The notes below the pieces were generated by a model. It had not been told where the DNA came from. It saw nothing but the letters and a program-made list of their open reading frames with translations, and did no database searches. From Candidatus Nezhaarchaeota archaeon WYZ-LMO8 (GTDB lineage Archaea; Thermoproteota; Methanomethylicia; Nezhaarchaeales; WYZ-LMO8), in NCBI GenBank assembly GCA_004347965.1, contig QNVF01000004.1, positions 1-41,433 of the forward strand: a DNA stretch of 41,433 bases, in the 5' to 3' direction. Each line of letters begins with the position of its first letter. The first letter of the stretch is position 1. A program made the translations under genes and the position numbers. Below, piece by piece: positions 1-40,491 of the stretch.

Positions 1-299
1 ATAAGAGAGTGAAATTGTATTAGTAACCTTCTTGCTAATAATGGCTGTAGATTCGATGTTTTTGCATAGAGACTTACCGAGCAACATAACACCAAGTGTA
101 AATGATTCAAGAAGCATTTAAAGCGGATAGGGCACTGAAGCATTAGTTTAAAGTACTCTACCATCATTTTCGGCAGCTTCAACACTAATGAGCAAAAATG
201 TTGTGACAAGTACGTAGCCACTTAATTTCGTATGAGTATCGACAGCCATACCTAGAAGATACATGAAAAAGTAGAAGATGCTGAGATGTCGACTCACAC

Positions 300-1079
300 T
301 TACTCTTCAATTATTGCAACGGCTCTACACCATGCCGCAGATGCACGAGCTATCTTTATTGGAAAGCAAGCTACCTTGAATCCGTGGGGTCTTGGAACCT
401 TATCCAGGTTCGCTAGCTTCTCAATGTGACAGTACTCCTTCGTTATGGCTGCAAAGTGCGCTGGCCATATTACCCTGCCGTCTCTAGTTCGCTTGTAATC
501 ATCCGCCATGTACTTAAATGGCCTATCGAATGTGTAGGCATCAATGCCCATGACCTTGACGCCCTGCTCGACCAACCATAAGGTAGCTTCCATTGACATC
601 CCAGGCTGCTCGAAGTACTCCGGTGTCCCAGCATATTTATCACGGCCAGTCATTATGAGGACTATGTCATATGGCTTTATTGTGTACCCAATCTTGTCCA
701 GTACTCCCTTTAAGTCATCAACAGTGATGTACTCTCCAGGCTTCTTATGCCTAAGGTCCAAGATTACTCCATCAGAGTAGCACCATTCCAACGGCACCTG
801 ATCTATGGTCCTAGCGAGCTTACCCTCCGATATGGGGTGAAAATGCCACGGAGCGTCTAAGTGTGTACCCGTATGCGTTATGGCACTTACCTCCTCGATG
901 GACCATCCAAGTCCTCCAGAGTACACTAGGTCTCGTGGGTCCACTCCAAGCAGTCTTTGCATATCGATTGCCCCTTCTCTATGATCTACATACCTGATTT
1001 TTGGCCTATACAGCTCTGGCTCTAATGGAGAATTATGCTCAATCGGCAAACTTAAATCGATTATCTTGACCCTCCCCAT
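300..1079 (-). CDS. Cyclase family metal-dependent hydrolase (kynurenine formamidase-like)
   Basis: 259 aa ORF with family signature HTGTHLDAPWHF, N-terminal IIDLS, and C-terminal IEKLANL / FPIKI...RAVA. Confidence 0.88.
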   Translation of the reverse strand: MGRVKIIDLSLPIEHNSPLEPELYRPKIRYVDHREGAIDMQRLLGVDPRDLVYSGGLGWSIEEVSAITHTGTHLDAPWHFHPISEGKLARTIDQVPLEWCYSDGVILDLRHKKPGEYITVDDLKGVLDKIGYTIKPYDIVLIMTGRDKYAGTPEYFEQPGMSMEATLWLVEQGVKVMGIDAYTFDRPFKYMADDYKRTRDGRVIWPAHFAAITKEYCHIEKLANLDKVPRPHGFKVACFPIKIARASAAWCRAVAIIEE

Positions 1080-22169: not shown

Positions 22170-22200
22170 ATAACTCCTAGTTCCTGTGTTTTTGAGTGGG

Positions 22201-25947: not shown

Positions 25948-26671
25948 GCTGGCATGGTGCCTAACAGGAGCTGGTCATCATCTCTTTGAGAGCGTAGAGG
26001 TTATGGAGGAGCTTGCATCTCGAGATTTCGAAATAACTATTTTCATATCTCAAGCAGGCCTTGAAGTCGCCAGAATGTATGGTCTTGAAAAGAGGTTGAG
26101 GTCCATAGCTGATGGCAGCTACTACAGGGAGTTTGTAACGCCAAGCGATGGAGCTAGCTGTAGCAAAGCTGGTAGGCTCTTAATGAGAATGTATCAAGCG
26201 CTAATAGCGTCGCCAGCTTCTGCAAACACTGTTGCAAAAGTTGTAAGGGGGATAGCGGATACGCCACCAACCATAGCCATAGCCCAAGCACTTAAGGGTG
26301 GTGTTAGAGTGTTCATGGTCCCAACCGATGGTGAAACTGAATATGAAACTGAGACCCCACACATGGTTGATAGACTTGTGTGTGAGGCGCATACGTGTAA
26401 AGAGTGCGAACCGTTGACTTCGTGCCCCACAGGTGCTTTCGAACTCGTAGAAGGCATGGGACACATAGACCTCAGTAAATGCATTGGATGCTCAAGCTGT
26501 CTTCGTTCATGCCCATTTGGGGCTATCAAATTTAGGGTTAAGGTCAAGGCTAGAAGTAGCCCTATAGACTTGGAGAATGTGAAGAGACTATCCTTAATCA
26601 GGGGGGTTGTCGTATTAAAGAGGCCTAAGGACTTATTACAAAAGATTGAAGAGCTCACTAGCTCACGCTAA
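25928..26671 (+). CDS. dmrX: Dihydromethanopterin reductase (acceptor); AfpA-type flavoprotein with ferredoxin insert
   Basis: AWCLTGAGH, ASANTVAKVVRGIADT, VPTD, two Fe-S motifs (CKEC...CP; CIGCSSCLRSCP), IDLENV. Confidence 0.8.
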   Translation: MSKFRNRLAWCLTGAGHHLFESVEVMEELASRDFEITIFISQAGLEVARMYGLEKRLRSIADGSYYREFVTPSDGASCSKAGRLLMRMYQALIASPASANTVAKVVRGIADTPPTIAIAQALKGGVRVFMVPTDGETEYETETPHMVDRLVCEAHTCKECEPLTSCPTGAFELVEGMGHIDLSKCIGCSSCLRSCPFGAIKFRVKVKARSSPIDLENVKRLSLIRGVVVLKRPKDLLQKIEELTSSR

Positions 26672-26764
26672 GATACTCGTAAGTGAGGACGATGGTAATA
26701 AAGCAAAGGGTTATCGAACATCATGTGATGAAGAGCTAGGATCTAAAATTTTCGAAGAAAAACT

Positions 26765-26779
26765 GAGAAAGTTTAAAAA
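26765..26779 (+). promoter_or_regulatory. Putative BRE/TATA promoter of the hdr/hydrogenase operon
   Basis: GAGAAAG-TTTAAAAA about 75 nt upstream of the hdrC ATG in the 181-nt gap after dmrX. Confidence 0.5.
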
Positions 26780-26852
26780 AGAACTAAATAGAAATTATGA
26801 GAGTCTGATAAGAACCCAAATACCTTACGAGAGCCTTGAGGAGCCGATCACG

Positions 26853-27380
26853 ATGGCGGATACCAAGCCATTAATTGCAAGCTACCCCATAACTTTAGAG
26901 CAACTTAACAAGAAAATTCCCGAAGTACTTAAGGAGACGGGGATTGAGAAGTGCATTCAATGCGGCACTTGCACAGGATCTTGTCCTTCAGGCAGGAGGA
27001 CAGCTTTTAGGACTAGAGTCGTCATAAGGAAAGCCCTGCTTGGATTGAGGGAGGACTTACTAAAAAGCAATGATATATGGCTTTGCACTACGTGTTATAC
27101 ATGCTATGAGCGATGTCCTCGGAAGATAAGCATTATCGAAGCCATTATAGCTTTAAGGAACATGGCTGCAGCTCAAGGGTTCATGCTGCCTAGACATAAA
27201 GAGATATCGAAGTACTTGGTGAGCTATGGGCACTTAGTACCTATAAATGAACCTAACAAAAAGCGCAGAACTGAATTAGGCTTATCAGAAGTTCCTCCAA
27301 CTGTGCACTCTCATCCCGAGGCTCTTGAAGAAGTTAAGAAGCTCCTTGAAGTCACCGGGTTTACTAAACTCGTGGGGTGA
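26853..27380 (+). CDS. hdrC: Heterodisulfide reductase subunit C
   Basis: GAGGAG RBS + ATG 26853; CIQCGTCTGSCPSGRRT, WLCTTCYTCYERCPR, GHLVPI, PPTVH. Confidence 0.93.
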   Translation: MADTKPLIASYPITLEQLNKKIPEVLKETGIEKCIQCGTCTGSCPSGRRTAFRTRVVIRKALLGLREDLLKSNDIWLCTTCYTCYERCPRKISIIEAIIALRNMAAAQGFMLPRHKEISKYLVSYGHLVPINEPNKKRRTELGLSEVPPTVHSHPEALEEVKKLLEVTGFTKLVG

Positions 27381-28285
27381 AGGTCTTGGGTGAGCTAAGA
27401 TTTGCGTTCTTCTTAGGTTGCATTATGCCTAACAGGTATCCTGGACTAGAAGCCTCCGTTAGGAGGGTCTTTGAAAAACTGGGCATAGAGCTTGTAGACA
27501 TGAAGGGTGCTTCATGTTGCCCTGCCCCCGGGGTCGTGAGGTCCTTCAAGTTTGATACATGGGTGGCATTGGGGGCTAGGAATTTATCAATAGCTGAAGA
27601 GATGGGCCTTGACATAGTCACAGGATGTAGTGGCTGCTATGGAACACTCAGAGATATATGGTATGAACATCGTGAAAAGAAGGAGATTAGAGATAAAGTT
27701 GACTACTACTTATCTCAAATAGGTAAATCGTTTAAAGGTAAGATCAAGGTAAAACATGTTCTTGAGGTCCTCCACTTTGATGTAGGCGTTGAAAAGCTTA
27801 AAGAATTCATCAAAAAACCTTTAAGCAACATTAAGGCTGCTGTCCACTACGGATGCCATATCCTAAAGCCGAGTGATAAGAGACCTTGGAAAGAGGGAAC
27901 TGAGAAACCAAGATTCTTTGATGAGCTTGTAGAGGTTACTGGAGCAAAAAGCATTGATTGGAAAGACAAGTTCATGTGCTGTGGCGCTGGTGGTGGGGTC
28001 AGATCTGGAGCTTTGGACGTAGCTCTGCACATGACAAAAGAAAAGATCGAGAATGCTTATGCAAGCGGAGCTGATTGCATAGTTAACGCGTGCTCATTTT
28101 GCCATCTTCAATTTGATACAGGTCAAATAGAGATAAACAAAAGTTACGGTACTTCATTTAACATGCCAATAATTTATTACACACAACTTTTAGGTTTAGC
28201 AATGGGTCTAAGCCCTGAAGAGCTCGGTTTACATCAAAACAATGTTAGTGTTGAACCTTTATTAAGGAAGTTGGGGGTGAACTAG
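27377..28285 (+). CDS. hdrB: Heterodisulfide reductase subunit B
   Basis: Two intact CCG domains: LGCIMPNRYPG, SCCPAPG, CSGCYGTL, HYGCH, CCGAGGGVRS, CSFCHLQFD. Confidence 0.95.
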   Translation: MKVLGELRFAFFLGCIMPNRYPGLEASVRRVFEKLGIELVDMKGASCCPAPGVVRSFKFDTWVALGARNLSIAEEMGLDIVTGCSGCYGTLRDIWYEHREKKEIRDKVDYYLSQIGKSFKGKIKVKHVLEVLHFDVGVEKLKEFIKKPLSNIKAAVHYGCHILKPSDKRPWKEGTEKPRFFDELVEVTGAKSIDWKDKFMCCGAGGGVRSGALDVALHMTKEKIENAYASGADCIVNACSFCHLQFDTGQIEINKSYGTSFNMPIIYYTQLLGLAMGLSPEELGLHQNNVSVEPLLRKLGVN

Positions 28286-28286
28286 C

Positions 28287-28814
28287 TTGGCGACCGGGGA
28301 GGTTAAGGGAGAAACACAACATAAAACGTTCGCGTCTTATAGGACTTCGTTAAGGAAGGTCTTTTACATAGACCTTGAGAAGTGCATAGGATGCAAGTCG
28401 TGTGAAGCTGCATGCGCTAGAGTGCATGATGGTAGCCCGAGGATGTATATCCAGACGATATCTGAATTCAATGTTCCAATGCACTGTCAACATTGTGAAG
28501 TCCCTGCTTGCGTTGAAGCATGTCCTGAAAAGGCGATAGACGTCTCGCCTGAGGGCTTCACAGTATTGAACGAAGCAAAGTGCGTTGCATGTAGGGCATG
28601 CATAGTGGCATGTCCTTTTGGCATGCCCAGGCTTGAGGAGGAGAAGAGGGTCGTTGTTAAATGCGATATGTGTATTGAGAGGATAAGGCAAGGGCTAGAA
28701 CCAGCTTGTGTGGCTACATGCACATCAGGGGCCTTAATGTTTATAACGTGCATAGGTTGTAATATATGCGTTGTTTCGTGCCCATTTGTTAAGAAAGTAA
28801 GCATTAAGGGCTGA
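28287..28814 (+). CDS. HycB/HydN/CooF-like 4x[4Fe-4S] electron-transfer subunit
   Basis: CIGCKSCEAAC, CQHCEVPACVEACP, CVACRACIVACPFG, KCDMC...PACVATC; extra C-terminal CIGCNICVVSCP. Confidence 0.88.
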   Translation: MATGEVKGETQHKTFASYRTSLRKVFYIDLEKCIGCKSCEAACARVHDGSPRMYIQTISEFNVPMHCQHCEVPACVEACPEKAIDVSPEGFTVLNEAKCVACRACIVACPFGMPRLEEEKRVVVKCDMCIERIRQGLEPACVATCTSGALMFITCIGCNICVVSCPFVKKVSIKG

Positions 28815-28821
28815 AGCTGTA

Positions 28822-29367
28822 ATGGCTATTTCGCATAAAATCGAAGAGTTTAGAAAAGCTCTCTTAGAGTTTGCTAAGAGGGGTACCATAACATCTAAGG
28901 TAGTTATAGAAGTACCTGAGCTACTATACGGCTTTGGCAAGCCCATTTACGACTCGGAGAAGTGCTATGGGTGTGCAGCTTGTACGATTCAATGTCTAGG
29001 TGGGGCTTTGAGACTTATTGAAACTCAGGATAGAAGGAGGATATACATGGATTACTGGAGGTGTATAGCTTGCGAGGAGTGCGCCATCAAGTGTCCCAAG
29101 GAAGCTATAAAAGTTGAGAGAGTTTTCGATTTATCGAGTTTTTTAAGTGATGAACCTCTCCTCTTAATTGATGTTGAGCTCAAGAGGTGCATGATGTGTG
29201 GAAGATCTATTTCCTCAATTAAGCAAATAGATGAGGTGCATGGTTTGATTAAGCACTTACCCTTACCTAAGACCCACATCGACAGGATTGGTCTTCTTTG
29301 TGAAGACTGTAGAAAGGTTGTTGCAGCTAAATCATTACTGAGAAGTAGGGGGGCTAAGGTTGGATAG
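28822..29367 (+). CDS. HycF/NuoI-like 2x[4Fe-4S] subunit with C-terminal four-Cys site
   Basis: GKPIYDSEKCYGCAACTIQC, CIACEECAIKCP, RCMMCG...LCEDCRK. Confidence 0.8.
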   Translation: MAISHKIEEFRKALLEFAKRGTITSKVVIEVPELLYGFGKPIYDSEKCYGCAACTIQCLGGALRLIETQDRRRIYMDYWRCIACEECAIKCPKEAIKVERVFDLSSFLSDEPLLLIDVELKRCMMCGRSISSIKQIDEVHGLIKHLPLPKTHIDRIGLLCEDCRKVVAAKSLLRSRGAKVG

Positions 29368-31270
29368 TGTGAGGTCCATCTGCCCATTTTGTTGTCTTGG
29401 ATGCAACTTGCAGCTAATAGTAGATAAAGGAGCGATAGTAGGTATAGAGTACTTGAGCGAGGGGCCAAATGAGGGAGCTCTTTGTACGAGAGGAAACACC
29501 AGTTACGAAATTGCTCAACATCCTGATAGGCTTGCAACCCCACTCATTAGGAGCGATGGTGGATTTAAGGAAGTCTCTTGGAGTGATGCCTTGAAGTTCC
29601 TATCAGAAAAGCTGTTAAAAATAAAGTCAGAACATGGTCCAAGATCCATCGGCGTCATAGCTTCGGCGAGAACGTCAAATGAAGATTGCTATGTAACGCA
29701 GAAGTTTGCTAGAACAGTTTTAGAGACTCCAAACATAGACAACCCAGCTAGACTTACGCATGCAGCTACATTGAGCTCCTTAGCCAAGAACCTTAAGTAT
29801 CCATGGGCGACGTGCACGTTAGATTTGATTGAGGAAACAGACTTCATTCTAATAGCTGGTGCTAATCCCTTCGAGGTAAACCCTGTTTTAACGAGAAGGA
29901 TTCTGAGAGCTAGGGATGGCGGGGCCATAATTGTGGTCGTGGATCCAAGGCGTACCAAGACGACGTGGAAGTCAGACCTACATCTCCAAGTTAAGCCGGA
30001 AAGCGATCCTGAGTTATTCCTGTCGATGCTTAACGTTATAAGTTCATCAAAGCTAATTAAGGACGAAGCCTGGAAAGTTGAAGGCTTCCAGGAAACAGTT
30101 AAACTGGCAGAGGAGTACATCCCTGAGAACGTAGAAGCGAAGGTGGGTATTAGTTCGAAGCTTATAAGGGAGACTGCTCTTAGGCTCGCACTTTCTAAGA
30201 GGCCAATAATAATATTTTCTCATGGACTGACTCAGCAGAGGAGAGCTTTAGCTGCCCTCAGGGCTCTTGTGGTACTCAGTAGGGCTGTAGGGGTCTTCTC
30301 TAATGGTGGTCTAATACCATTAACCGATCAAAACAATATGCAAGGATCATGCGACATGGGTTGTTTAGCTGAGTACGGTCCAGGCTATACGTTAGTCGAG
30401 AAAGGTCTCACTATAACTGAGATGATTGAGACCGCAGCTAAAGGAGACTTAAAGGCCCTCATAGTCATAGGCTTCAACTTAGTTGCGTCATTACCTGACC
30501 GAAGGTTCATTGAAGATGCTCTAAGAAGACTTGACTTACTCGTGGTGATGGACCTCTTCCCTACAGATACTACAAAGCTTGCTCACGTGGTATTACCGAT
30601 ATGTTCATGGGCTGAGTACGACGGAACCTATACGAACATTGAGGGAAGAGTTCAAAGAAGCTTTAAGGCTATCGAACCATTAAATGAAGCCAAACCTTTA
30701 TGGTTAATTCTATCAGAGCTTGCGAGGATCATGGGTGCGAAGGGCTTCAATTACTCTAGCTGGATTGATGTTTTTAAAGAGATAACGCTCACCGTAGACC
30801 AATATTCAAAGTTAACCATAGAAGGAGTATCAGTGATTGGCGGTCAGCTAGTCAAGAAGGAGATCAAAGGGATTACCAGCTTGAAGGAATTAAAGTCTGA
30901 GCCTGAATCACCTGAAGAAGCTTCAAATAAGTTTGTCCTCATAGCCGGGAGGGGGATACACCACCTAGATACCGGTGACTTAACTCGAAGGTTGAGCTTC
31001 GCTTCAAAGGAAGTACCTGAACCATACCTTGAAATCTCTCAAGAAGATGCGCTTGAACTTAACTTAAAGGATGGAGATGTCGTTGAAGTCAAGGGGCCAA
31101 AGGGAAGCTTAAGGGTTAAGGTTAAGGTGGCGCCTAAGGGCCTGAGAGGCGTAGTGTTCATGCCGATACACTTCCCAAGCTGTAGCCCATTATCGATAGC
31201 GAACTTTAAAGTACATGAAGAAACAAAGGCCCCATTAATTAAGCACTTCATGGTGGAGATAACTAGGTGA
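29360..31270 (+). CDS. FdhF/FdhA-like molybdopterin oxidoreductase with substituted active site
   Basis: CPFCCLGC...ALCTRG Fe-S domain, RLATPLIR, SARTSNE, QKFAR, NIDNPARLTH, VDPRRT, QNNMQGSCDMG, GTYTNIEGRVQR, C-terminal cap domain VFMPIHF. Confidence 0.85.
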   Translation: MDSVRSICPFCCLGCNLQLIVDKGAIVGIEYLSEGPNEGALCTRGNTSYEIAQHPDRLATPLIRSDGGFKEVSWSDALKFLSEKLLKIKSEHGPRSIGVIASARTSNEDCYVTQKFARTVLETPNIDNPARLTHAATLSSLAKNLKYPWATCTLDLIEETDFILIAGANPFEVNPVLTRRILRARDGGAIIVVVDPRRTKTTWKSDLHLQVKPESDPELFLSMLNVISSSKLIKDEAWKVEGFQETVKLAEEYIPENVEAKVGISSKLIRETALRLALSKRPIIIFSHGLTQQRRALAALRALVVLSRAVGVFSNGGLIPLTDQNNMQGSCDMGCLAEYGPGYTLVEKGLTITEMIETAAKGDLKALIVIGFNLVASLPDRRFIEDALRRLDLLVVMDLFPTDTTKLAHVVLPICSWAEYDGTYTNIEGRVQRSFKAIEPLNEAKPLWLILSELARIMGAKGFNYSSWIDVFKEITLTVDQYSKLTIEGVSVIGGQLVKKEIKGITSLKELKSEPESPEEASNKFVLIAGRGIHHLDTGDLTRRLSFASKEVPEPYLEISQEDALELNLKDGDVVEVKGPKGSLRVKVKVAPKGLRGVVFMPIHFPSCSPLSIANFKVHEETKAPLIKHFMVEITR

Positions 31271-31277
31271 GGGTTCG

Positions 31278-34200
31278 ATGTCTAAGAACGTAAGAATCGG
31301 AGTATTTATATGTCATTGCGGTAAGAACATAGCTGGGACCGTCAACGTCGAAGATGTTAGAAAGTACGCTGAAAAGTTACCGAACGTCATAGTGGCTAGG
31401 GATTACATGTTCATGTGCTCTGAAGCAGGTCAGCAATTGATTAAAGACGCCATAAAGGAATTTAATCTAAATAGGATCGTTGTTGCTGCTTGCTCTCCTA
31501 AGCTTCACGAAATCACCTTCCGTCGATGCTTAGAGGAAGCAGGTCTGAATAAGTTCTTCTTAGAAATGGCGAATATAAGGGAGCAATGCTCATGGGTTCA
31601 CATCAATGAACCTCATAAGGCAACAGAGAAAGCCAAGGCTCTCATAAGGGCTGCAGTTATGAGAATACATGAACACGAAGAAATTGGAACTATTAGAGAG
31701 GATGTAGTAAGGAAGGTGTTAGTCATAGGTGGAGGAATAGCAGGAATACAAGCATCACTAAATCTTGCGAGGCCCCGCAAAGGTAGGTTAAGGTCAGTCC
31801 TAGTCATAGGTGGAGGAATAGCAGGAATACAAGCATCATTGGACTTAGCTGACATGGGGTACAAGGTTTACCTTGTTGAGAGGAGATCAGTTATAGGAGG
31901 TAACATGGCAAAGACCTACAAGACATTCCCAACAGATGATTGCGCAATGTGCATACTTTCACCAAAGATGAATGACGTCGCCGCTCACAAAAATATAGAA
32001 CTCATAACTAACGCGGAAGTAGTATCGATTGATGGGGAAGCAGGTCACTTTAAGGTCAAGATAAGGAAACATCCAAAGTACGTAAACCCAGCAAAATGCA
32101 CTGCATGTGGGACTTGTGCTGAAAAGTGCCCCGGCAGAGCTCCTGACGACTGGAACTTATTCGGTACGCGAAAAGCCATATACTTACCGTATCCACAAGG
32201 AGTTCCTAGGAAGTACGTCATAGACCCAAAAGCCTGCTTGTATCTAACTAAGGGGATATGCAGAGTATGTGAGAAGATATGTCCAGCTGGAGCGATAAAC
32301 TTCGAAGATAAAGGCGAAGAAGTGGAAGTAGAGGTTGGAGCAATAATAGTTGCAACTGGGTGGGAAGAGTTCAATCCAGAGCCCTTAACTCAATATGGTT
32401 ATGGCAAGTACAAGAACGTGATCACGTTAATTCAATTCACAAGGATGTTTGACGTCGCGGGTCCAACTGGAGGTAAGGTCGTAAGGTTGAGTGACGGTAA
32501 GCCAGCCAACAGGATCCTGATAGTTAATTGTGTTGGTTCTAGAGATGACAGGTACATACCTTATTGCTCAACAGTCTGCTGCATGGCAGCCATTAGAAAT
32601 GCTAGGCTCGTTAAGTTTGAACAGAATCCTAACGCTGAGGTCTACATATGCTACATAGACATAAGGGCTTCTGGGAAAGGGTATGAAGAGTACTATAAGA
32701 GCTCACAAGGCATGGGTATTAACTTCATTAGAGGTAGGGTAGCAGAGGTATACGAAGATGAGAAGACGGGTGATGTGATAGCTAGGGTCGAGGACACTAC
32801 AACTAGGACTATACTGGAGCTACGAGTTGACCTCTTAGTACTAGCATGCCCGATGGTTCCATCTAAGGGTACTAGAGAGATTGCAGATCTACTAAAGCTT
32901 GAGACAGACGAATTCGGCTTCATAAAACCAAGACACCACAAACTTGCTCCAGTAGACACCTCGAGACCTGGGATCTTTGCTTGCGGATGTGCCACAGGTC
33001 CAAGAGACATCCCAGATACGGTAGCGTCTGCAAGTGCCGCAGCTTTGAGGGCCGCTATGTTTCTGGAAGGCGAGCCATTTGAGGTTTACCTCGTCGAGAA
33101 AAGCCCATACCTCGGTGGGGTGACGTTTAAGCTTGCAAGAACATTCTTCACCGATGAGCCTCTACCGGATATCCTCACCCCACTATTTAAGGAGCTTTCT
33201 GGAAGCACAAACATTCACTTGCTATTAAACTCTGAGGTCAAAGAGGTGAAGGGGCACATAGGAAACTTCACTGTCAAGATATTGCAAAGGCCTCGATACG
33301 TTGACGTAACAAAGTGTAATGGTTGTGGTTTATGCAAGGACGTCTGTCCAGTTAAGGTGGATGATGAGTGGAATCTTGGGTTGACTAAGAGGTCAGCGAT
33401 ATTCAAACCTCATCCAGATGCCTACCCAATAGCGTACGCTATAGACCCTCATAACTGTAAGTTTGCTTCGTGTGCCAAATGCGTTGAGGTGTGTCCAACT
33501 AAGGCCATAGTGCTTAGCGAAGAACCAAGAGAGATAGAGCTGAAAGTGGGAGCAATAATCGTCGCTACGGGTCTAGACGAGTTTAAGCCCTTAGAGATTA
33601 AGCAGTATGGATACGGAGTTTACAAGGACGTCATCACTCAGCTTCAATTAGCAAGAATGTTAGATCCTAAAGGCCCTACGGGAGGTAAGTTGGTTAGACC
33701 GTCGACAGGCGAAGTGCCAAGAAGTGTTGTCATGATTCAATGTGCTGGCTCTAGGGATGAGAAGACGAATCCTTATTGTTCAAGAATATGTTGTGCAGTT
33801 GCCTTAAAGGCCACCAAGATGATCAAGGAGCAGATACCAGGCTGCGACATTTACATATGCTATGTAGATATGAGCGCATTCGGTTTCTTAGAGCTTTACT
33901 ATAAGAACGTACAATCCATGGGTGTGAACTTCATAAGAGGTAAAGTCGCTGAGGTGTTGAGTGAAGGAGACAGGTTAAAGGTTAGGGTTGAGGATACATT
34001 ACTTGGAGAACTTATTGATGTACCAGCTGACTTGGTTGTCTTGTCCTCTGCCCTCATTCCAGCTGAGGGTACATCAGATTTCGCTAAGGTGCTTGGTATA
34101 GATGTTGGTCCTGATGGCTTCTTAAAAGAGCTGCATCTTAAGCTAAGGCCTGTGGACTCCAAGGTAGCTGGTATATTTATTGCTGGCGGATCGCAGGGAC

Positions 34201-34535
34201 CTAAGGACATAGCCGATACAGTGGCTCAAGCATTAGCAGCTTCATCTAAAGCTACCATTCCCATAGCTCGCGGATTCATAGAGGTCGAATTAGTTAAAGC
34301 ACAGGTTGACGAAGACCTTTGCGTTGGCTGCGGACATTGCGAGAAAGTATGTCCGTACAAGGCCATAGAGATAGTTAACATATCACGTGGCCGGAAGATT
34401 GCTAAGGTTCATGAAATAGAGTGTGAAGGATGTGGTGCCTGCGCTGCTACTTGTAGGCTAGGGGCCATTCAACTGAGGGGCTTTAAAGACAATCAAATAT
34501 CGGCTCAACTAGTTGGCTTGCTAGGTGGTGGTTAA
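31278..34535 (+). CDS. hdrA: Heterodisulfide reductase subunit A, 1085 aa, containing two FAD/Fe-S cores (nested)
   Basis: IGVFICHCG, FMCS, AACSP, NIREQCSWVH; two GGGIAG motifs; two ferredoxin inserts; two C.GSRD...YCS..CC motifs; two GP.DI.D motifs; one C-terminal ferredoxin. Confidence 0.93.
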   Translation: MSKNVRIGVFICHCGKNIAGTVNVEDVRKYAEKLPNVIVARDYMFMCSEAGQQLIKDAIKEFNLNRIVVAACSPKLHEITFRRCLEEAGLNKFFLEMANIREQCSWVHINEPHKATEKAKALIRAAVMRIHEHEEIGTIREDVVRKVLVIGGGIAGIQASLNLARPRKGRLRSVLVIGGGIAGIQASLDLADMGYKVYLVERRSVIGGNMAKTYKTFPTDDCAMCILSPKMNDVAAHKNIELITNAEVVSIDGEAGHFKVKIRKHPKYVNPAKCTACGTCAEKCPGRAPDDWNLFGTRKAIYLPYPQGVPRKYVIDPKACLYLTKGICRVCEKICPAGAINFEDKGEEVEVEVGAIIVATGWEEFNPEPLTQYGYGKYKNVITLIQFTRMFDVAGPTGGKVVRLSDGKPANRILIVNCVGSRDDRYIPYCSTVCCMAAIRNARLVKFEQNPNAEVYICYIDIRASGKGYEEYYKSSQGMGINFIRGRVAEVYEDEKTGDVIARVEDTTTRTILELRVDLLVLACPMVPSKGTREIADLLKLETDEFGFIKPRHHKLAPVDTSRPGIFACGCATGPRDIPDTVASASAAALRAAMFLEGEPFEVYLVEKSPYLGGVTFKLARTFFTDEPLPDILTPLFKELSGSTNIHLLLNSEVKEVKGHIGNFTVKILQRPRYVDVTKCNGCGLCKDVCPVKVDDEWNLGLTKRSAIFKPHPDAYPIAYAIDPHNCKFASCAKCVEVCPTKAIVLSEEPREIELKVGAIIVATGLDEFKPLEIKQYGYGVYKDVITQLQLARMLDPKGPTGGKLVRPSTGEVPRSVVMIQCAGSRDEKTNPYCSRICCAVALKATKMIKEQIPGCDIYICYVDMSAFGFLELYYKNVQSMGVNFIRGKVAEVLSEGDRLKVRVEDTLLGELIDVPADLVVLSSALIPAEGTSDFAKVLGIDVGPDGFLKELHLKLRPVDSKVAGIFIAGGSQGPKDIADTVAQALAASSKATIPIARGFIEVELVKAQVDEDLCVGCGHCEKVCPYKAIEIVNISRGRKIAKVHEIECEGCGACAATCRLGAIQLRGFKDNQISAQLVGLLGGG
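31720..31838 (+). repeat. Exact 38-bp direct repeat (81-bp period) inside hdrA
   Basis: TAGTCATAGGTGGAGGAATAGCAGGAATACAAGCATCA at 31720-31757 and 31801-31838. Confidence 0.95.
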
Positions 34536-34537
34536 GT

Positions 34538-34978
34538 ATCGAGAAAGCCAGCGAATTCGATCCGGTGATAGTAGCATTTTGCTGTGAGCATTGTGCTTAC
34601 GCTGCTGCCGATCTTGCAGGAACATCAAGGATGCAGTACCCACCTAACGTCAGGATAGTGAGGGTGCCATGCACCGGTAAGGTTGACATGCTCTACATAC
34701 TAAGGGCGTTTATGCTTGGAGCTGACGGAGTCTTCGTCGCTGGCTGTCTTAAGGGTGGCTGCCACTTCGTGGACGGTAACTTAAAGGCTAACGCAAGAGT
34801 TCAATTCTTGAAAAAGATACTTGAGTTATTAGGCTTTGGTGGAGATAGGCTTGATATGTTCTTTATGTCCTCAGCCATGACGTGGGAGTTTGTGAGAATA
34901 GCAAGAGAGTTTACGGAGAGAATCAAGAAGCTAGGACCTAACCCATTCTTTAAGAGAAACGGGGTTGATGGTAAATGA
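34538..34978 (+). CDS. mvhD: [2Fe-2S] MvhD/FlpD subunit
   Basis: (EFDP)VIVAFCCEHCAYAAADLAG..RMQYPPNVRIVRVPCTGKV, GADGVFVAGC..GGCHF, LGPNP; start is GTG 34565 or non-canonical ATC 34538. Confidence 0.92.
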   Translation: MEKASEFDPVIVAFCCEHCAYAAADLAGTSRMQYPPNVRIVRVPCTGKVDMLYILRAFMLGADGVFVAGCLKGGCHFVDGNLKANARVQFLKKILELLGFGGDRLDMFFMSSAMTWEFVRIAREFTERIKKLGPNPFFKRNGVDGK

Positions 34979-35430
34979 GCTTTAAGGTTCCTTCAAATTT
35001 CAATGAGCTCTTGAAGCTTATTGAGGGCGAGCTAAGCCCCATTAGTGTTGATGTTAGGAGTAGTAAGAGGATTTATGTAGATATAAAGAAAGAGGATATT
35101 AGGAGGGCGGCTAAGCTCTTCCTAGATCTCTTTGAGCCTCTTAGGGGTAGGTTCTCAACCGCTACCGCCATGGATTGCAGAGATCATTTTGAAATCCTAT
35201 ACCACTTCTCATTTAGTGAGCTTGGACTTGTACTAACCGTGAGATGCAAGGTGCCTAGATACAAGCCAGAGATAGACTCGATAGCCGACTTGATATATGG
35301 AGCAAGCTTCATCGAAAGGGAGATCCACGACCTCATGGGCATAAAGTTCATGGGTCACCCGAATCTAAGAAGGTTAGTATTACCCGATGATTGGCCAGAA
35401 GGTGTATACCCACTTAGGAGGTATGGATGA
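34975..35430 (+). CDS. Group 4 hydrogenase NuoC/EchD/MbhK-like subunit
   Basis: FEILYHFS, IDSIADLIYGASFIEREIHDLMGIKFMGHPNLRRLVLPDDWPEGVYPLR. Confidence 0.9.
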   Translation: MSFKVPSNFNELLKLIEGELSPISVDVRSSKRIYVDIKKEDIRRAAKLFLDLFEPLRGRFSTATAMDCRDHFEILYHFSFSELGLVLTVRCKVPRYKPEIDSIADLIYGASFIEREIHDLMGIKFMGHPNLRRLVLPDDWPEGVYPLRRYG

Positions 35431-36617
35431 TGTCGGGAGGAGAGCTCGTAATACCGTTAGGACCCTATCACCCAGCATTTAAAGAGCCTGAACTCTTCAA
35501 GCTCTACGTTGATGGAGAATCCATAGTGAATATAGACATTAGGCTCGGATTTCAACATAGAGGTATCGAGTACCTGGCTCAGAAGTTGACGGTCCAACAA
35601 GTAGTTTTCTTGGTGGAGAGAATATGTGGGATATGCTCTACCTCACATCCAACATGTTTTTGTCAAGCTGTAGAAGAGGCAATGGGGCTTGAGGTCCCGG
35701 ATAGAGCTAGGTACATCAGGACTCTGATAGCAGAACTTGAAAGAATTCATAGCCACTTGCTCTGGGCTGGGGTAGCGCTACACCTCATAGGCTACGATAC
35801 GTTATTCATGTACTTCTGGAGATATCGAGAGCCAGTATGTGAGCTCTTTGAGGAGCTGACAGGTAATAGACAACATTACGCTATGCTATGTCCTGGTGGA
35901 GTGAGAAGAGACATAGACTTGAAGAAAATGAGGCCTAAGATCCTTAAAGTGATGAAAGAGATAAAGGAAGCAATTACCAAGTTAGCTGATGCTGTAGCCC
36001 GCGATAGACTCGTGAGGGCAAGAATGGAGGGAATAGGTGTTCTAACAAAGCAAGATGCCATTAGGTACTGTGTGGTTGGTCCAACAGCTCGAGGATCAGG
36101 GCTTAAGATTGATGTGAGGGCTGATGAGCCCTATGCAGCCTACAAGGAGTTGGGAGTCGACGTCAAGGTTATGACTGAAGGCGATGTACTGGCTAGGACT
36201 CTCGTCAGAGTCTTAGAGACATTGGAATCCGTAGAGATAATAGAGAGGTGCATCGACTCCATGCCCAATGGCCCCATAACAGCGGAGTTTAATGAGTACC
36301 CCGTAGCTGACGGTATAGGAAAGCACGAGGCTCCTAGAGGCGAGGACATACACTACGTCAAGCTCAATGGTACACCAGTACCTGAGAGAGTCAAAATTAG
36401 AGCTCCTACTTACGCTAACCTTCCATCACTGGTCCCCCAGCTTATAGGGTACTCAATAGCCGACGCCCCGATAATATTGGGCTCAATAGACCCTTGCTTT
36501 AGCTGCACAGAGAGGGTCTCGATAGTCGATGTTAGAAATGGGAGGACCATAACCCTATCGATGGACGAGTTCAACGAGTTTTGTCGTAAGAGGAAGAATC
36601 CGTTAAAGGTGAGGTGA
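35427..36617 (+). CDS. Group 4 membrane-bound [NiFe]-hydrogenase large subunit
   Basis: GPYHPAFKEP, HRGIE, L1 ERICGICSTSH, ELERIHSHL, EAPRGE, L2 DPCFSCTER followed by a 33-aa C-terminal extension. Confidence 0.93.
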   Translation: MMSGGELVIPLGPYHPAFKEPELFKLYVDGESIVNIDIRLGFQHRGIEYLAQKLTVQQVVFLVERICGICSTSHPTCFCQAVEEAMGLEVPDRARYIRTLIAELERIHSHLLWAGVALHLIGYDTLFMYFWRYREPVCELFEELTGNRQHYAMLCPGGVRRDIDLKKMRPKILKVMKEIKEAITKLADAVARDRLVRARMEGIGVLTKQDAIRYCVVGPTARGSGLKIDVRADEPYAAYKELGVDVKVMTEGDVLARTLVRVLETLESVEIIERCIDSMPNGPITAEFNEYPVADGIGKHEAPRGEDIHYVKLNGTPVPERVKIRAPTYANLPSLVPQLIGYSIADAPIILGSIDPCFSCTERVSIVDVRNGRTITLSMDEFNEFCRKRKNPLKVR

Positions 36618-37589
36618 ATGATTGACCTTTGGGTTGTGGGGCTCTCAATAGCATACATAGTGCTTATAGGGCTACTGATAGCGCCGAACATAGGCCTATT
36701 CTTGACGTGGATTCATAGAAAGCTTGGAGCACGAATGCAGTGGCGTATAGGGCCTCCAATATATCAGCCGTGGGCCGATGTCATCAAGCTACTATCTAAA
36801 GAGCTAATAGTTCCAGAGACAGCGCATAGAGCAACGTTCCTCTTAGCGCCTCTATTAGCCCTCGCAACGGTGATACTAGCGTTCTTAATAATGCCATTTG
36901 TGGGAAGGACGCCCTTAGCCTTTGTAGGCGACGTTATAGTGGTCATTTACTTGATGTCAATGCCAGCCTTAGCAGCAATGATTGGAGGATCGGCCTCGGG
37001 AAACCCTTACGCCGCAGTTGGAGTTCAGAGAGAAATGACACTAATATTCTCTTACGAGCTTCCATTCATCATGGCTGCCTTGGTGCCAATACTTAAGGCT
37101 CGGAGCTTGAAATTCATCGATATAATTAATTATCAATTAGGTAACGGTCCACTCGTCTTCACGATTTCGGGTTTCTTAGCATTTGTTGTCATGGTGATGG
37201 TGATGCAGGCTAAGCTTGCTCTTCCACCATTTGACATACCTGAAGCGAAAACAGAGATAATCGCTGGTCCCTACGTGGAGTACTCCGGACCTCTGCTTGC
37301 ACTATTTAAGCTTGCTCATGCAGTTATGCTGTTGGTAGTAGCTTGCTTCGTATCCAACATGTTGCTCGGTGGCCTAATCGTTAGTGATTGGAGTAGCTAT
37401 GTCGTGATTTTAACGGACTTGCTGCTCATAGCGGTTAAGATACTAGTAGTCATAATAATAGCTGCCTTCATAAGATTCTACAATCCCAGATTAAGACCAG
37501 ACCAAGCTTTTGGCATGTTCTGGAAGACCATAACGTTCATAGCTGCCTTGGCTCTAATCCTAAGTTTCGTTCCCATACCATACTTTTAA
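36618..37589 (+). CDS. NuoH/HycD/EchB-like membrane subunit
   Basis: RKLGARMQWRIGPPIYQPWADVIKLLSKE, SGNPYA, PFDIPEAKTEIIAGPYVEYSG, PRLRPDQ. Confidence 0.92.
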   Translation: MIDLWVVGLSIAYIVLIGLLIAPNIGLFLTWIHRKLGARMQWRIGPPIYQPWADVIKLLSKELIVPETAHRATFLLAPLLALATVILAFLIMPFVGRTPLAFVGDVIVVIYLMSMPALAAMIGGSASGNPYAAVGVQREMTLIFSYELPFIMAALVPILKARSLKFIDIINYQLGNGPLVFTISGFLAFVVMVMVMQAKLALPPFDIPEAKTEIIAGPYVEYSGPLLALFKLAHAVMLLVVACFVSNMLLGGLIVSDWSSYVVILTDLLLIAVKILVVIIIAAFIRFYNPRLRPDQAFGMFWKTITFIAALALILSFVPIPYF

Positions 37590-37601
37590 GTGGTGTTAGG
37601 C

Positions 37602-38042
37602 ATGTCTGGCTTAATCACATGGGCTCGAATAAAGAGTCCTTGGCTATTTCACTTCAACTCTGGATCATGTAATAATTGTGACATAGAGTTATTAGATGCT
37701 TTAACTCCGAGGTTCGATGTCGAAAGGTTTGGGATACTTCTAGAGGGAAGTCCAAGGCACGCCGATGTGCTCGTCGTGACTGGGATCGTTAACAGGCAAA
37801 CTCTACCAAGGCTTAAGAGAATCTACGATCAAATGCCGAACCCGAAGATCGTCGTGGCCCTAGGTACTTGTGCAACATCTGGGGGGATATTCTCTGAGGG
37901 ATACAACATAGCTGGGCCAGTAGACAAAGTCATACCGGTTGACGTCTACATACCCGGCTGTCCTCCCAGACCTCAAGCGATCATAGATGGCATAGTGAAG
38001 GCATTAGCCAAGATTCAAGCTCTTAGAGGTGGTAAGAGGTGA
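37602..38042 (+). CDS. Group 4 hydrogenase small subunit (NuoB/HycG-like)
   Basis: SPWLFHFNSGSCNNCDIE, SPRHADVL, GTCATSGG, PVDVYIPGCPPRP. Confidence 0.93.
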   Translation: MSGLITWARIKSPWLFHFNSGSCNNCDIELLDALTPRFDVERFGILLEGSPRHADVLVVTGIVNRQTLPRLKRIYDQMPNPKIVVALGTCATSGGIFSEGYNIAGPVDKVIPVDVYIPGCPPRPQAIIDGIVKALAKIQALRGGKR

Positions 38043-39925
38043 TCGCTATGAGCCTTTCAGAGATAATGCTGATCATGGTGCTAGTGCCTGGTGTAGCTGG
38101 CTTCATAACTCTTGGTTTAAGTAAGGTTAGAGCTACTAGTGGAGCCATCGCCTCCATTGCCTGCTTGATCGCACTAATCATGAGCGGGGCCCTACTGTAT
38201 AAGCTAAATGTGGAGAACATAGTTCAACAGGTGATCTTGTGCCTAAGCGTTATCGGAATGAAATGGGAGCTCGAAGTTACAAGGCTCAATGCCCTTACTA
38301 CGTTCTTCATCGCATTGATTGGTTTTCTAATAGCACTATATTCCACTAGATACATTACTAGGTACGATGGTAAGGGCTACTACTTCACGCTAATACTTTG
38401 GAGCTTAAGTGCATCGATAATCGCCATGATGTCAATGAACTGGATATCGTTCTTAGTATTTTGGGAAGTCTGCACGTTAGCCTTATTCTTCTTAGTTAGA
38501 GCCGGGGGTAGTGAGGCTAAAGCACCTGCATATAGGGCGCTCCTCCTTCTGGCTTCATGCGACCTCTTAATGACTGTCGGGGTTGCCTTGGCCGTAGTTA
38601 AGACGCAAAGTCTTGAAATCTCAAGGCTCGCAGGCTTAGACCCACTTAGCGTGGGTTTGATATTCACGTTAATGATTCTAAGCGCCTTAGCTAAGGCAGG
38701 AGGTGTACCGGTTCATACATGGATCCCAGATATTGCTTCAAACTCTCCGGCGACCACACTAGCTCTATATCCAGCTGCCTACGATAAGCTGCTTGGGATA
38801 TTCAAGCTCTCAGTGATCTGCCACTACATTATAGCATTTACCCCTTCAATTAGCACGGTAGTCACCATTATAGGAATGATGACCATGCTCTTGGCTGTCC
38901 TCATGGCCATGGTTCAGCACGACATAAAGAAGCTGCTTAGCTTTCACGCTATTAGCCAAGTGGGCTACATGATAACCGGTATAGGCATCGGAACCTCACT
39001 AGCCATAGCCGGTGGTCTCTTCCACATGGTCAACAACGTGCTTTTTAAGAGCTGCCTATTCTTAACAGCTGGAGCAGTCTTCTACGTTACTGGTGCCAAA
39101 GAGGTTGAGAGGCTAGGTGGGCTGGCTAAGAAGATGCCCATCACCTTCGCGTGTGCTCTGATAGCGGCTCTCGCAATATCAGGAGTTCCACCGTTGAATG
39201 GCTTTGCTAGCAAGTGGATGATATACCAAGCTGCCTTTGAAGCAACGGAGATAAGTCCTGTCAACGCAGTCGCTGGTATAATCGCAGTTTTAACCAGCGC
39301 CCTAACCTTAGCTTCATTCATAAAGTATCTTCACAGCGTATTTCTAGGCCCCCTACCAAGAGGGTACGAAAACGTCGAGGAAGTACCATTAAGTATGAGA
39401 GTTCCGATGATTGTGTTGGCGGCTTTATGCATAGTCTTTGGGCTACTCCCACAAGTCCCCCTCACCTACATGATCATACCTGCTTTAAGTAACATACACG
39501 TTACGTACGGCTTGCCTACATCACTACCGCTAGAGTGGGTGTACTTAGCTCCATCAGCTTGGGCTACTTGGAGCCCAATAGTAGTCACGTTGATAGCCCT
39601 CTTAGCGCTAGCGCTTGGGTGGATTATCTACGTAACTGGTAAGAGGGTGCAGCCGTTTGTCTATAGGATTGAAGCCGTTAAGCCATTTGTCTCCGGTGAA
39701 GACCTAATTATCTATTATCATGGCGGGCACTTCTATGGACCAGTTAAGTTATCCTTAAAGAGGTTCTACTCAATAGCAGATAAGGGAGGATTCTCGATAG
39801 CGTGGAGATCTATTGCTAACATCTTTAAACCAGTCTTAAAGAGTCCTAGAAACGGGGTTTTCTTTATTTATGCCTTGTGGATCATCATGATAATTTTGGT
39901 GGCGATTATTGGTGGTGGTACATGA
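38039..39925 (+). CDS. Antiporter-like ion-translocating subunit (NuoL/HyfB/HycC/EchA family)
   Basis: FLVFWE, KAGGVPVHTWIPD, DIKKLLSFHAISQVGY, FKSCLFL.AG, GGLAKKMP, GVPPLNGFASKW. Confidence 0.92.
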   Translation: MIAMSLSEIMLIMVLVPGVAGFITLGLSKVRATSGAIASIACLIALIMSGALLYKLNVENIVQQVILCLSVIGMKWELEVTRLNALTTFFIALIGFLIALYSTRYITRYDGKGYYFTLILWSLSASIIAMMSMNWISFLVFWEVCTLALFFLVRAGGSEAKAPAYRALLLLASCDLLMTVGVALAVVKTQSLEISRLAGLDPLSVGLIFTLMILSALAKAGGVPVHTWIPDIASNSPATTLALYPAAYDKLLGIFKLSVICHYIIAFTPSISTVVTIIGMMTMLLAVLMAMVQHDIKKLLSFHAISQVGYMITGIGIGTSLAIAGGLFHMVNNVLFKSCLFLTAGAVFYVTGAKEVERLGGLAKKMPITFACALIAALAISGVPPLNGFASKWMIYQAAFEATEISPVNAVAGIIAVLTSALTLASFIKYLHSVFLGPLPRGYENVEEVPLSMRVPMIVLAALCIVFGLLPQVPLTYMIIPALSNIHVTYGLPTSLPLEWVYLAPSAWATWSPIVVTLIALLALALGWIIYVTGKRVQPFVYRIEAVKPFVSGEDLIIYYHGGHFYGPVKLSLKRFYSIADKGGFSIAWRSIANIFKPVLKSPRNGVFFIYALWIIMIILVAIIGGGT

Positions 39926-40491
39926 CCAAGCTGAAGGCTGTACTTGAAGGTTTTAGAGCCTTGATTAAGGGTCCCTTCACGGTAAGGTATCCCTTCGAGC
40001 CCTCTCCTCCGCCTGAAACTTTTAGAGGAGCTCCTAAACGAGATATCGAGAAGTGTACTGCATGCGGTGCATGCTACCAGAATTGCCCAACTAAAGCCAT
40101 TTCGATCCTCGACCTAGGCAAGGAGGTTGCTGTCGACGTTTGGTACGGTAAGTGCATCTTCTGTGCGAGGTGTACTGAGGTGTGCCCTGAAGAAGCAGTT
40201 AAGATGAGCTTGACCTATGACCTCAGCACCTACAACAAGGAGGAGGTTAGAGAAAGCGTCTCCATGCCCGCTCAAAGATGTCAAATATGTGGAAAGTTGA
40301 TAACAAGCGATAGGCAGGTAGACAAGGTTATTGATAGGGTTAAGATACTTCCGCTACCATTAAATTACCATATGATGGTGTCTCTATGCCCAGAATGCAA
40401 GAGGAAGCAGCAAGCTACACTTTTATTGGGATTAAGAGTGGAGAGAGTACCAGCAATAACCATTCCGGTGGCTGTCAGCGAAAAGAAGTAG
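39922..40491 (+). CDS. HycF/NuoI-like 2x[4Fe-4S] subunit of the hydrogenase
   Basis: GGTGGTGG RBS + ATG 39922; GPFTVRYPF...FRGAP, CTACGACYQNCP, CIFCARCTEVCP, RCQICG...LCPECKR. Confidence 0.9.
   Translation: MTKLKAVLEGFRALIKGPFTVRYPFEPSPPPETFRGAPKRDIEKCTACGACYQNCPTKAISILDLGKEVAVDVWYGKCIFCARCTEVCPEEAVKMSLTYDLSTYNKEEVRESVSMPAQRCQICGKLITSDRQVDKVIDRVKILPLPLNYHMMVSLCPECKRKQQATLLLGLRVERVPAITIPVAVSEKK

Follow-up and report, generated by a model that had tools for sequence, protein, structure and literature searches.

HdrA, at which flavin-based electron bifurcation takes place, is central to the energy metabolism of methanogens, and the wiring of its obligate dimer is still debated. Here we describe an HdrA from Candidatus Nezhaarchaeota archaeon WYZ-LMO8 in which one flavin core is encoded within the sequence of another. 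Its gene lies at 31278..34535 on the forward strand of a 41,433-nucleotide (nt) window, the whole stretch of DNA that was analysed (contig QNVF01000004.1); all coordinates given below are those of the window and all features described lie on its forward strand. The gene is an uninterrupted open reading frame of 1085 amino acids (aa), placed 8 nt after a gene for an FdhA-like protein and 30 nt before one for MvhD.

The chain begins with the N-terminal Fe-S domain of an outer unit (residues 1–140, 31278..31697), which aligns with residues 4–158 of the canonical HdrA chain 5odc_A and contains the invariant cysteines C12, C14, C47, C72 and C104. It is followed by a first β1-αA element carrying GGGIAG (residues 146–164, 31713..31769), which on the basis of conservation, an AlphaFold2 (AF2) model and a predicted complex we propose to be the first element of the Rossmann fold of the second core, core 2. 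After a weakly conserved linker of eight residues (linker 1, 165–172, 31770..31793) comes the inner unit, made of a second β1-αA and a complete core 1 (residues 173–598, 31794..33071) and supported by VIA superposition on 8rvu_a and by cysteine columns; it has an inserted ferredoxin domain, the cysteines C418, C430, C434 and C435 of the thioredoxin reductase (TrxR)-domain cluster and, at 31941..31952, the pair C222-x-x-C225, which alignment and a motif scan identify as the counterpart of Cys194/Cys197 of 5odc_A. Core 2 of the outer unit (residues 601–1000, 33078..34277) starts at β2 and lacks both GxGxxG and CxxC; it has an inserted ferredoxin domain with eight cysteines, together with C822, C834, C838, C839, K844 and D977, and its description draws on alignment, the motif scan, a BLASTP comparison of the two halves and the predicted complex. 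The chain closes with a single-copy C-terminal 2×[4Fe-4S] ferredoxin domain (residues 1001–1085, 34278..34532), which is recognised by Pfam Fer4 families and aligns with 5odc_A residues 469–649. The order N-terminal Fe-S domain, first β1-αA, linker, complete HdrA core, core 2 without GxGxxG and C-terminal ferredoxin is confirmed by the following comparisons.

In phmmer the protein matches 5odc_A at E 4.8e-214, and the alignment falls into three pieces, query residues 5–159 with subject 4–158, 169–534 with 141–503 and 900–1081 with 469–649; the NCBIfam HdrA models each likewise match the protein in three stretches. A hidden Markov model of the core, built for this analysis, matches it twice, with 695 and 669 bits. 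The TrxR-like flavin adenine dinucleotide (FAD) domain of HdrA and its [4Fe-4S] cysteines are also present twice, with both sets of cysteines invariant in the ten aligned proteins described below. By motif scan the cluster motif CxGSRD...YCSxxCC occurs at 418/429 and again at 822/833, and CxxCxxCxxxCP at 274 and 680 (the two copies of the inserted ferredoxin domain) and 1015 (the one C-terminal ferredoxin domain), whereas the N-terminal CxCGxN at 12 and FPTxDCxxC at 217 are each single-copy. GxGxxG occurs just twice in the whole protein, with its copies at residues 151 and 178. Core 2 has none, its first residue being F601 (nt 33078) and its opening sequence FEVYLVEKSPYLGG. When the two halves are compared by BLASTP they are 44% identical over 402 columns (E 5e-119), and the alignment sets in with Y195 (Y195-KVYLVE, β2 of core 1) against F601 (F601-EVYLVE), which indicates that core 2 begins at the second Rossmann strand, without a first strand or glycine-rich helix of its own. 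The second β-α is joined to β2 of core 1 by a canonical three-residue turn; the first β-α alone is free. Against canonical HdrAs of 650 aa the protein aligns in two pieces, query 3–603, with a 27-residue extra segment inside it, and query 582–1084, the latter with subject residues of about 147–651. An initial annotation of this DNA had given the reading frame, the residue limits and the position of F601, and all of these coordinates are correct; its statements that the second half has no GxGxxG of its own, and that two cores go with only one N-terminal and one C-terminal Fe-S domain, are likewise borne out by the motif scan and the 5odc_A alignment.

The layout is conserved. In a search of 5.8 billion proteins, from which 8000 candidates were scored and 120 listed, nine of the listed matches span 99–100% of the query (56–98% identity, 1085–1095 aa); they are protein clusters from several sources, one of them on a 1.32-Mb contig. 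In an alignment of these nine with the protein described here, both GGGxAG motifs, the short linker and the start of core 2 without GxGxxG are all kept, down to 56% identity. V149, I150, G151, G152, G153, A155 and G156 of the first motif are invariant in all ten proteins, as are F601, L605, E607, G613 and G614 of core 2. Mean column identity is 0.81 for the first β-α, 0.45 for the linker, 0.94 for the second β-α, 0.78 for core 1 and 0.73 for core 2, which puts the conservation of the first β-α level with that of the cores. Among 270 collected HdrA-like proteins, two GxGxxG motifs less than 60 residues apart (motif order N-G-G-c-T-T) were found in ten, and only in the nested ones; the same ten are the only ones of 90 two-core proteins in which both motifs precede unit 1 and unit 2 is preceded by none. 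Three further two-core proteins have a second unit without GxGxxG, as judged by regular expression, and none of these has two adjacent motifs.

The arrangement is also rare. Within an exhaustive library of 50% representatives, one of the best 150 matches was collinear in a single stretch, and the full nested region is present in four of the 62 species genomes of the class, namely the source genome, one of the same genus and two from other genera of the family. Of 80 loci retrieved with a divergent member, a single one is also nested, in a metagenome-assembled genome (MAG) titled Bathyarchaeia. The query detected no nested HdrA in a further genome of the same genus (G059, 93% complete, nine contigs); since close relatives have it, the cluster has a patchy distribution within the genus.

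It was then important to ask where the first β-α belongs in the folded chain. An AF2 model of the full-length protein, made with a 10-row alignment, has a mean predicted local distance difference test (pLDDT) of 75 and a predicted template modelling score (pTM) of 0.75. It contains a strand at residues 146–150 and a helix at 154–164 (block pLDDT 87–89), followed by the linker block at 68, so that the disorder of residues 145–171 which had been named as an outcome speaking against an insertion is not seen. Core 1 (170–598) superimposes on the HdrA core of 8rvu_a with a VIA Z of 47.7 and a root mean square deviation (rmsd) of 1.8 Å over 420 aligned residues, whereas forcing the N-terminal domain and core 1 together (3..600) onto the whole 5odc_A chain gives an rmsd of about 22 Å; the model therefore does not place the N-terminal domain as core 1's own.

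In addition, a complex was predicted between residues 136–172 and residues 601–1000, with FAD included, with an alignment of our own and with three controls. Its interaction prediction score from aligned errors (ipSAE) is 0.94 (0.93, 0.94 and 0.94 in the individual runs) against 0.00 for the best control, with a run-to-run contact agreement of at least 94% and a partner pLDDT of at least 74. In the calibration of the tool 116 of 157 solved complexes came up to the same mark, as did 2 of 215 mismatched pairs, a calibration that is only roughly valid here given our own alignment and the FAD. The least-error contacts set residues 147–150 between 603–607 and 757–763, and residues 159/160 against 605 and 985, which corresponds to the canonical position of β1, in the middle of the Rossmann sheet, and of αA. 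At the level of the models, core 2 has a vacancy, into which the predicted complex places residues 143–164, and the first β-α is fit to fill the slot; occupancy in the cell lies beyond this model.

Independent support for core 2 being filled by the first β-α comes from the FAD-binding hallmarks which it retains, together with the tie between the second β-α and β2 of core 1. E607 at the end of β2, G613, G614, K844 and D977 of the GD motif are each present in all ten nested proteins. The initial annotation had favoured a domain insertion over a simple tandem fusion, and had named as checks a split alignment against canonical HdrA and the pairing of residues 145–165 with 601 onward. The alignment falls into two pieces and the fragment prediction is consistent with the pairing; an insertion is further supported by the conservation of the first β1-αA, its predicted docking into core 2 and the FAD hallmarks kept there.

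The cysteines provide a second line of argument. In solved HdrA, Cys197 in the flavin domain of one protomer serves as a ligand to the N-terminal cluster of the other, and in split and fused HdrAs the N-terminal domain and Cys197 are complementary between the two units (PMC9012536). In the nested protein C225 aligns with Cys197 of 5odc_A, the CxxC is found only in core 1, and the N-terminal domain is single; the alignment and motif scan give no cysteine at the positions of core 2 that match C222 and C225. If the units are taken as nested, the outer one has the N-terminal domain without a CxxC and the inner one the CxxC without an N-terminal domain, and it is only under this reading of the units that the protein has the complementarity of the doubled, type II HdrAs. 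On a plain tandem reading, the partner of the N-terminal cluster would be core 2, which has no such cysteine. From the count of invariant cysteine motifs in the ten aligned proteins, each chain should hold nine [4Fe-4S] clusters, one N-terminal, two in each of the inserted ferredoxin domains, one in each flavin domain and two C-terminal, and should also bind two FAD.

Further residues bear on the chemistry of the flavins. Lys409 and Glu356 (5odc_A numbering), next to the flavin, are described as important for bifurcation (PMC12054007), Glu356 being described as positioning the flavin-contacting Lys. The Lys409 counterpart in core 2 is K844, kept in 10/10 nested proteins, and in core 1 it is K in seven and R in three. 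The counterparts of Glu356 are residues 388 and 792 (about 32439–32441 and 33651–33653); this position is Glu in 40/40 tandem first cores and in 34/42 single HdrAs.

Fused HdrAs as such are already known, and include HdrA3/HdrA4 of anaerobic methanotrophic archaea (ANME) and the HdrA of the Moorella MetFV-HdrABC-MvhD complex (PMC9012536; PMC12054007), as well as BamE of class II benzoyl-CoA reductase (10.64898/2026.04.10.717634). BamE is a fused HdrA dimer for which cryo-electron microscopy (cryo-EM) has shown an asymmetry of B-FAD and NB-FAD, in which bifurcation takes place at the flavin beside the Cys pair, the second flavin being structural and non-bifurcating (10.64898/2026.04.10.717634). 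Type II HdrA is defined as having two thioredoxin-reductase-like domains per polypeptide and comprises 176 sequences; Table S2 of the same paper lists a Nezhaarchaeales protein as type II/A3 whose printed first ~400 residues equal those of the protein described here (PMC12054007). With its two TrxR-like domains in one polypeptide, the nested protein is of this type. Like type II HdrA and BamE, it has two flavin cores with one N-terminal domain, one CxxC and one C-terminal ferredoxin domain in a complementary arrangement, that is, as a covalent asymmetric pseudo-dimer.

However, it does not have the head-to-tail order of type II, in which each core is preceded by its own GxGxxG. The usual build, found in 67/270 of the collected proteins (motif order G-c-T-N-G-T), is a core with CxxC, an N-terminal domain, a GxGxxG, a core without CxxC and a C-terminal ferredoxin domain. 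In the nested protein, by contrast, the core with CxxC lies inside the Rossmann β-α-β of the other unit, so that two GxGxxG motifs are adjacent and the second core is without one. Its core 2 also retains more than is usual: the inserted ferredoxin domain is present in 10/10 nested proteins, whereas most tandem second cores lack it (75 of the 80 non-nested two-core proteins gave split matches), and the Asp of the GD motif is kept in 10/10 against 3/40 tandem second cores. Canonical HdrA of the MvhAGD-HdrABC and Fdh-Hdr complexes (PDB 5ODC, 8RVU, 7BKB) has all four domain types in common with the nested protein, at 40–50% identity and with aligned Cys ligands, but is built as a homodimer of 650-aa chains in which every part is present twice, where the nested HdrA is one chain with two cores and a single N-terminal domain, CxxC and C-terminal domain. 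The asymmetric pairs HdrA5/6 and HdrA12/13 of ANME are encoded by separate genes (PMC9012536), whereas here a unit of the second type is inserted in-frame. A nested or inserted arrangement was not found in the available portions of PMC9012536, PMC12054007, PMC9723716, PMC12700198 and the BamE preprint, nor in full-text literature searches, a scope which takes in neither figures nor bioRxiv supplements, and the domain cartoons of PMC12054007 might show it. The novelty therefore concerns the nested connectivity, the concept of an asymmetric fused HdrA being already known, and the nested wiring is a rare variant of the doubled HdrA.

The surrounding genes suggest the partners with which such a protein may work. 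Upstream are genes for HdrC-like (Fer4_8) and HdrB-like (2 × CCG) proteins (26646..28285) and for a Fer4_11 protein, a Fer4 protein and an FdhA-like molybdopterin oxidoreductase (28287..31270), the last scoring 503 bits with TIGR01591, under the cut-off of 666. Downstream are the gene for MvhD (FlpD; 34565..34978) and a membrane module (34975..40491) of a NuoC-like protein, the large subunit of a group 4 [NiFe]-hydrogenase with both Ni-binding motifs (RICGICSTSH ... DPCFSC), NuoH, NuoB, a NuoL-type antiporter subunit and a NuoI-like ferredoxin. All are co-directional with the nested hdrA and, headed by a flavoprotein-Fer4 gene, make up 14 genes whose synteny is kept in two relatives (G055 and G057). 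The heading gene (25928–26671) encodes a 247-aa flavoprotein (PF02441) fused to a 4Fe-4S ferredoxin motif and overlaps the downstream HdrC gene by 26 nt; it is kept in both of these relatives and absent from the Bathyarchaeia locus. The same partners recur in four of four contexts, the source locus, the two relatives and that Bathyarchaeia locus (L013:4520–15298), where Fer4_11, Fer4, FdhA-like, HdrC, HdrB, nested HdrA, MvhD, NuoA, NuoB, NuoC and a [NiFe] large subunit with both Ni motifs are found in a different order. An Ehg-like cluster thus occurs outside Nezhaarchaeia, in a lineage not known as methanogen.

The locus is the published Ehg cluster, which was proposed for Nezhaarchaeia (PMC9723716) and whose expression has been reported for a Methanonezhaarchaeia strain in culture (PMC12700198), and has the same gene set of HdrB/C, FdhA-like protein, HdrA, MvhD, group 4 [NiFe]-hydrogenase and antiporter subunit. 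In the available text of these two papers HdrA is handled like any other subunit, and nothing is said of a doubled or nested structure.

We propose that the protein is a single-chain asymmetric HdrA pseudo-dimer with nested connectivity, a reading that we regard as probable, and it most likely works as such within the Ehg cluster. The element order, its conservation and its reality as DNA are observed, and the model places the first β-α in the vacant slot of core 2. The inner unit (173–598) would be a complete TrxR-like core with its own β1-αA, FAD site, CxxC, inserted ferredoxin domain and TrxR-domain cluster, inserted between αA and β2 of the outer Rossmann fold. By comparison with solved HdrA and BamE, the two cores would pack like the protomers of (HdrA)2, both with FAD, and the single N-terminal cluster would be completed by C225 of the inner core. 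Electrons may then arrive via MvhD and the single C-terminal ferredoxin domain at the FAD beside the CxxC, in the inner core, where bifurcation would take place. The high-potential electron would pass through the [4Fe-4S] cluster of the inner core to HdrCB and the heterodisulfide, and the low-potential electron would use the N-terminal cluster and an inserted ferredoxin domain on its way either to ferredoxin or to the group 4 hydrogenase membrane module of Ehg. The FAD and clusters of core 2 would form a structural or wiring half, much less degenerate than that of the usual tandem fusions. A single-chain asymmetric mimic of the HdrA dimer had been suggested in the initial annotation, with the idea that it could serve different partners on its two sides. 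The mimic as such agrees with the complementarity of Cys197 and N-terminal domain described for other fused HdrAs (PMC9012536), its structural support coming from models.

With one HdrA core running inside the Rossmann fold of another, a single natural chain settles which N-terminal cluster, CxxC and input domain belong together, and makes a clean object for cryo-EM and for mutation of one flavin site at a time. It would also be one of the rare cases in which a domain has been inserted into a homologue of itself, leaving a discontinuous Rossmann fold whose first β-α lies 430 residues from the rest. The nested HdrA marks an Ehg-type Fdh-Hdr-hydrogenase cluster, for which expression has been reported in the first Methanonezhaarchaeia strain to be cultured and which is present too in a Bathyarchaeia MAG.

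Several points weigh against this proposal. The score of the predicted complex may owe much to likeness with solved HdrA, and any HdrA β1-αA would probably fit the slot; moreover, the packing of residues 146–164 on core 2 in the intact chain is extrapolated from a prediction made with two fragments. Flavin content, partners and the direction of electron flow are predicted from sequence, models and analogy. The bifurcating flavin is assigned to core 1 only via the CxxC and the BamE analogy, yet core 2 keeps the Lys and the Asp in 10/10 proteins, and in core 1 of this very protein the Lys409 counterpart is Arg (R441). The Glu356 counterpart is T in five and A in five of the core 1 sequences, and A in seven and E in three of those of core 2.

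A different possibility is that both flavins are catalytic and form two coupled bifurcation or confurcation sites, one for example linking formate or H2 to heterodisulfide and ferredoxin and the other serving the membrane hydrogenase. The TrxR-domain cluster cysteines, the eight-cysteine inserted ferredoxin domain and a counterpart of Lys409 (in core 1, K in seven and R in three) are present in both cores, D977 is kept as described above where tandem second cores seldom keep its equivalent, and two bifurcation reactions have been proposed for type II HdrA in general (PMC12054007). However, the chain has a single N-terminal cluster domain, a single CxxC and a single C-terminal input domain, which allows for no more than one complete canonical circuit, and in BamE, the one solved fused HdrA, the second FAD is off the branch point (10.64898/2026.04.10.717634). 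We consider it unlikely that both sites are catalytic.

It is similarly doubtful, in our estimation, that the nested chain arose as an independent, convergent covalent linking of an asymmetric HdrA pair, through insertion of an entire flavoprotein core into the first β-α-β of its homologue, with both flavin sites redox-active, unlike the usual tandem fusions. If this were true, one polypeptide would couple two bifurcation or confurcation events among formate, H2, heterodisulfide, ferredoxin and an ion-translocating group 4 hydrogenase. Trees bearing on the origin were built in IQ-TREE (quick mode) from 54 of 142 core units, taken from every third protein plus three named singles, and also in FastTree. 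Each of four core groups is monophyletic in both (in IQ-TREE with an SH-aLRT, a Shimodaira–Hasegawa-like approximate likelihood ratio test, of 95–99), and neither tree settles the order among the groups. In IQ-TREE the nested inner core clusters with the single HdrAs rather than the tandem first cores, and it is 55–59% identical to HdrAs of ~800 aa from other families of the class. Placing nested core 1 and tandem core 1 in one clade costs 41 log-likelihood units (approximately unbiased (AU) test, p 0.0275, for a grouping named after the tree had been seen), and on these sequences that clade is weakly disfavoured. Nested core 2 and tandem core 2 already form one side of a branch, with a support of 46.7, and a clade of the two nested cores, as expected from internal duplication, is not rejected (AU p 0.365). 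These AU tests leave both internal duplication and the insertion of a foreign core as candidate origins.

Another reading is a simple head-to-tail fusion with a leftover duplication of 27 codons, in which the N-terminal domain, the second β-α and core 1 form an ordinary HdrA and the first β-α is vestigial. The DNA lends this some plausibility. The stretches coding for the two motifs are a 50-nt direct repeat with a spacing of 81 nt, copy 1 (31708..31757) encoding the first VIGGGIAGIQAS and copy 2 (31789..31838) being 90% identical over 50 nt, 39 nt of it identical, and such a near-identical tandem repeat in this genus resembles a small, recent duplication. In addition, the second flavin domain of BamE is non-bifurcating and mainly structural (10.64898/2026.04.10.717634), and two cores that are sisters through internal duplication are left standing by the AU test.

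Against this, the duplication is old, as both copies are found in 10/10 proteins down to 56% identity and their DNA has diverged in two other genera, with 36/60 and 35/60 identical bases and 2/12 and 5/12 identical same-residue codons. In the source gene 12 of 17 same-residue positions have identical codons, against 70/173 (0.40) in the rest of the two cores; the second genome of this genus shares the long identical run (39–41 nt in the genus), with GGG in both copies where the source has GGA. The copies in this genus thus appear, we infer, to have been kept alike by gene conversion within the gene, acting between the two parts of a discontinuous domain pair. Nor does the first copy look vestigial, being constrained at 0.81 where the linker is at 0.45, and the predicted complex docks it into a core 2 that keeps every other FAD-binding hallmark in all ten proteins. 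The N-terminal cluster would, moreover, require a cysteine from core 2, which has none. A head-to-tail fusion with a vestigial repeat is in our judgement quite improbable, and the nested pseudo-dimer is the reading that we retain.

That the gene is an assembly chimera of two hdrA paralogues joined via the shared GGGIAG-coding repeat, as might be feared from an exact repeat of 39 nt that exceeds common k-mer sizes and from two other hdrA genes of ordinary length in the genome, has practically no chance of being right given the same architecture in nine more protein clusters, four genomes of the class and a Bathyarchaeia MAG, and the independent contigs that bridge both junctions with a repeat depth about twice that of the flanks. 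These contigs come from metagenomes of three hot-spring DNA runs, two of them possibly from the source sample and one (X10) from another study. In all three runs a 103-nt contig (31728–31830) spans both copies of the repeat, and the depth of a 38-nt repeat contig is 115.6 against 55 for its flanks, or 14 against 7–8. The junction of core 1 and core 2 is spanned by contigs of 986–2727 nt that show no difference from the source sequence, and also by a 657-nt contig from an RNA library with 32 differences. The bridging contigs and the conserved layout elsewhere make a misassembly of two hdrA paralogues, the other adverse outcome named at the outset, very unlikely. Contigs of the RNA library (X13) cover much of the gene at 90–99% identity, although contigs cannot show transcription. 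Upstream of the cluster, at 22186–25947, lies a gene for a 1253-aa reverse gyrase (helicase, Toprim, topoisomerase IA and reverse gyrase zinc finger); reverse gyrase is a hyperthermophile marker, and its presence fits the hot-spring runs that contain this sequence.

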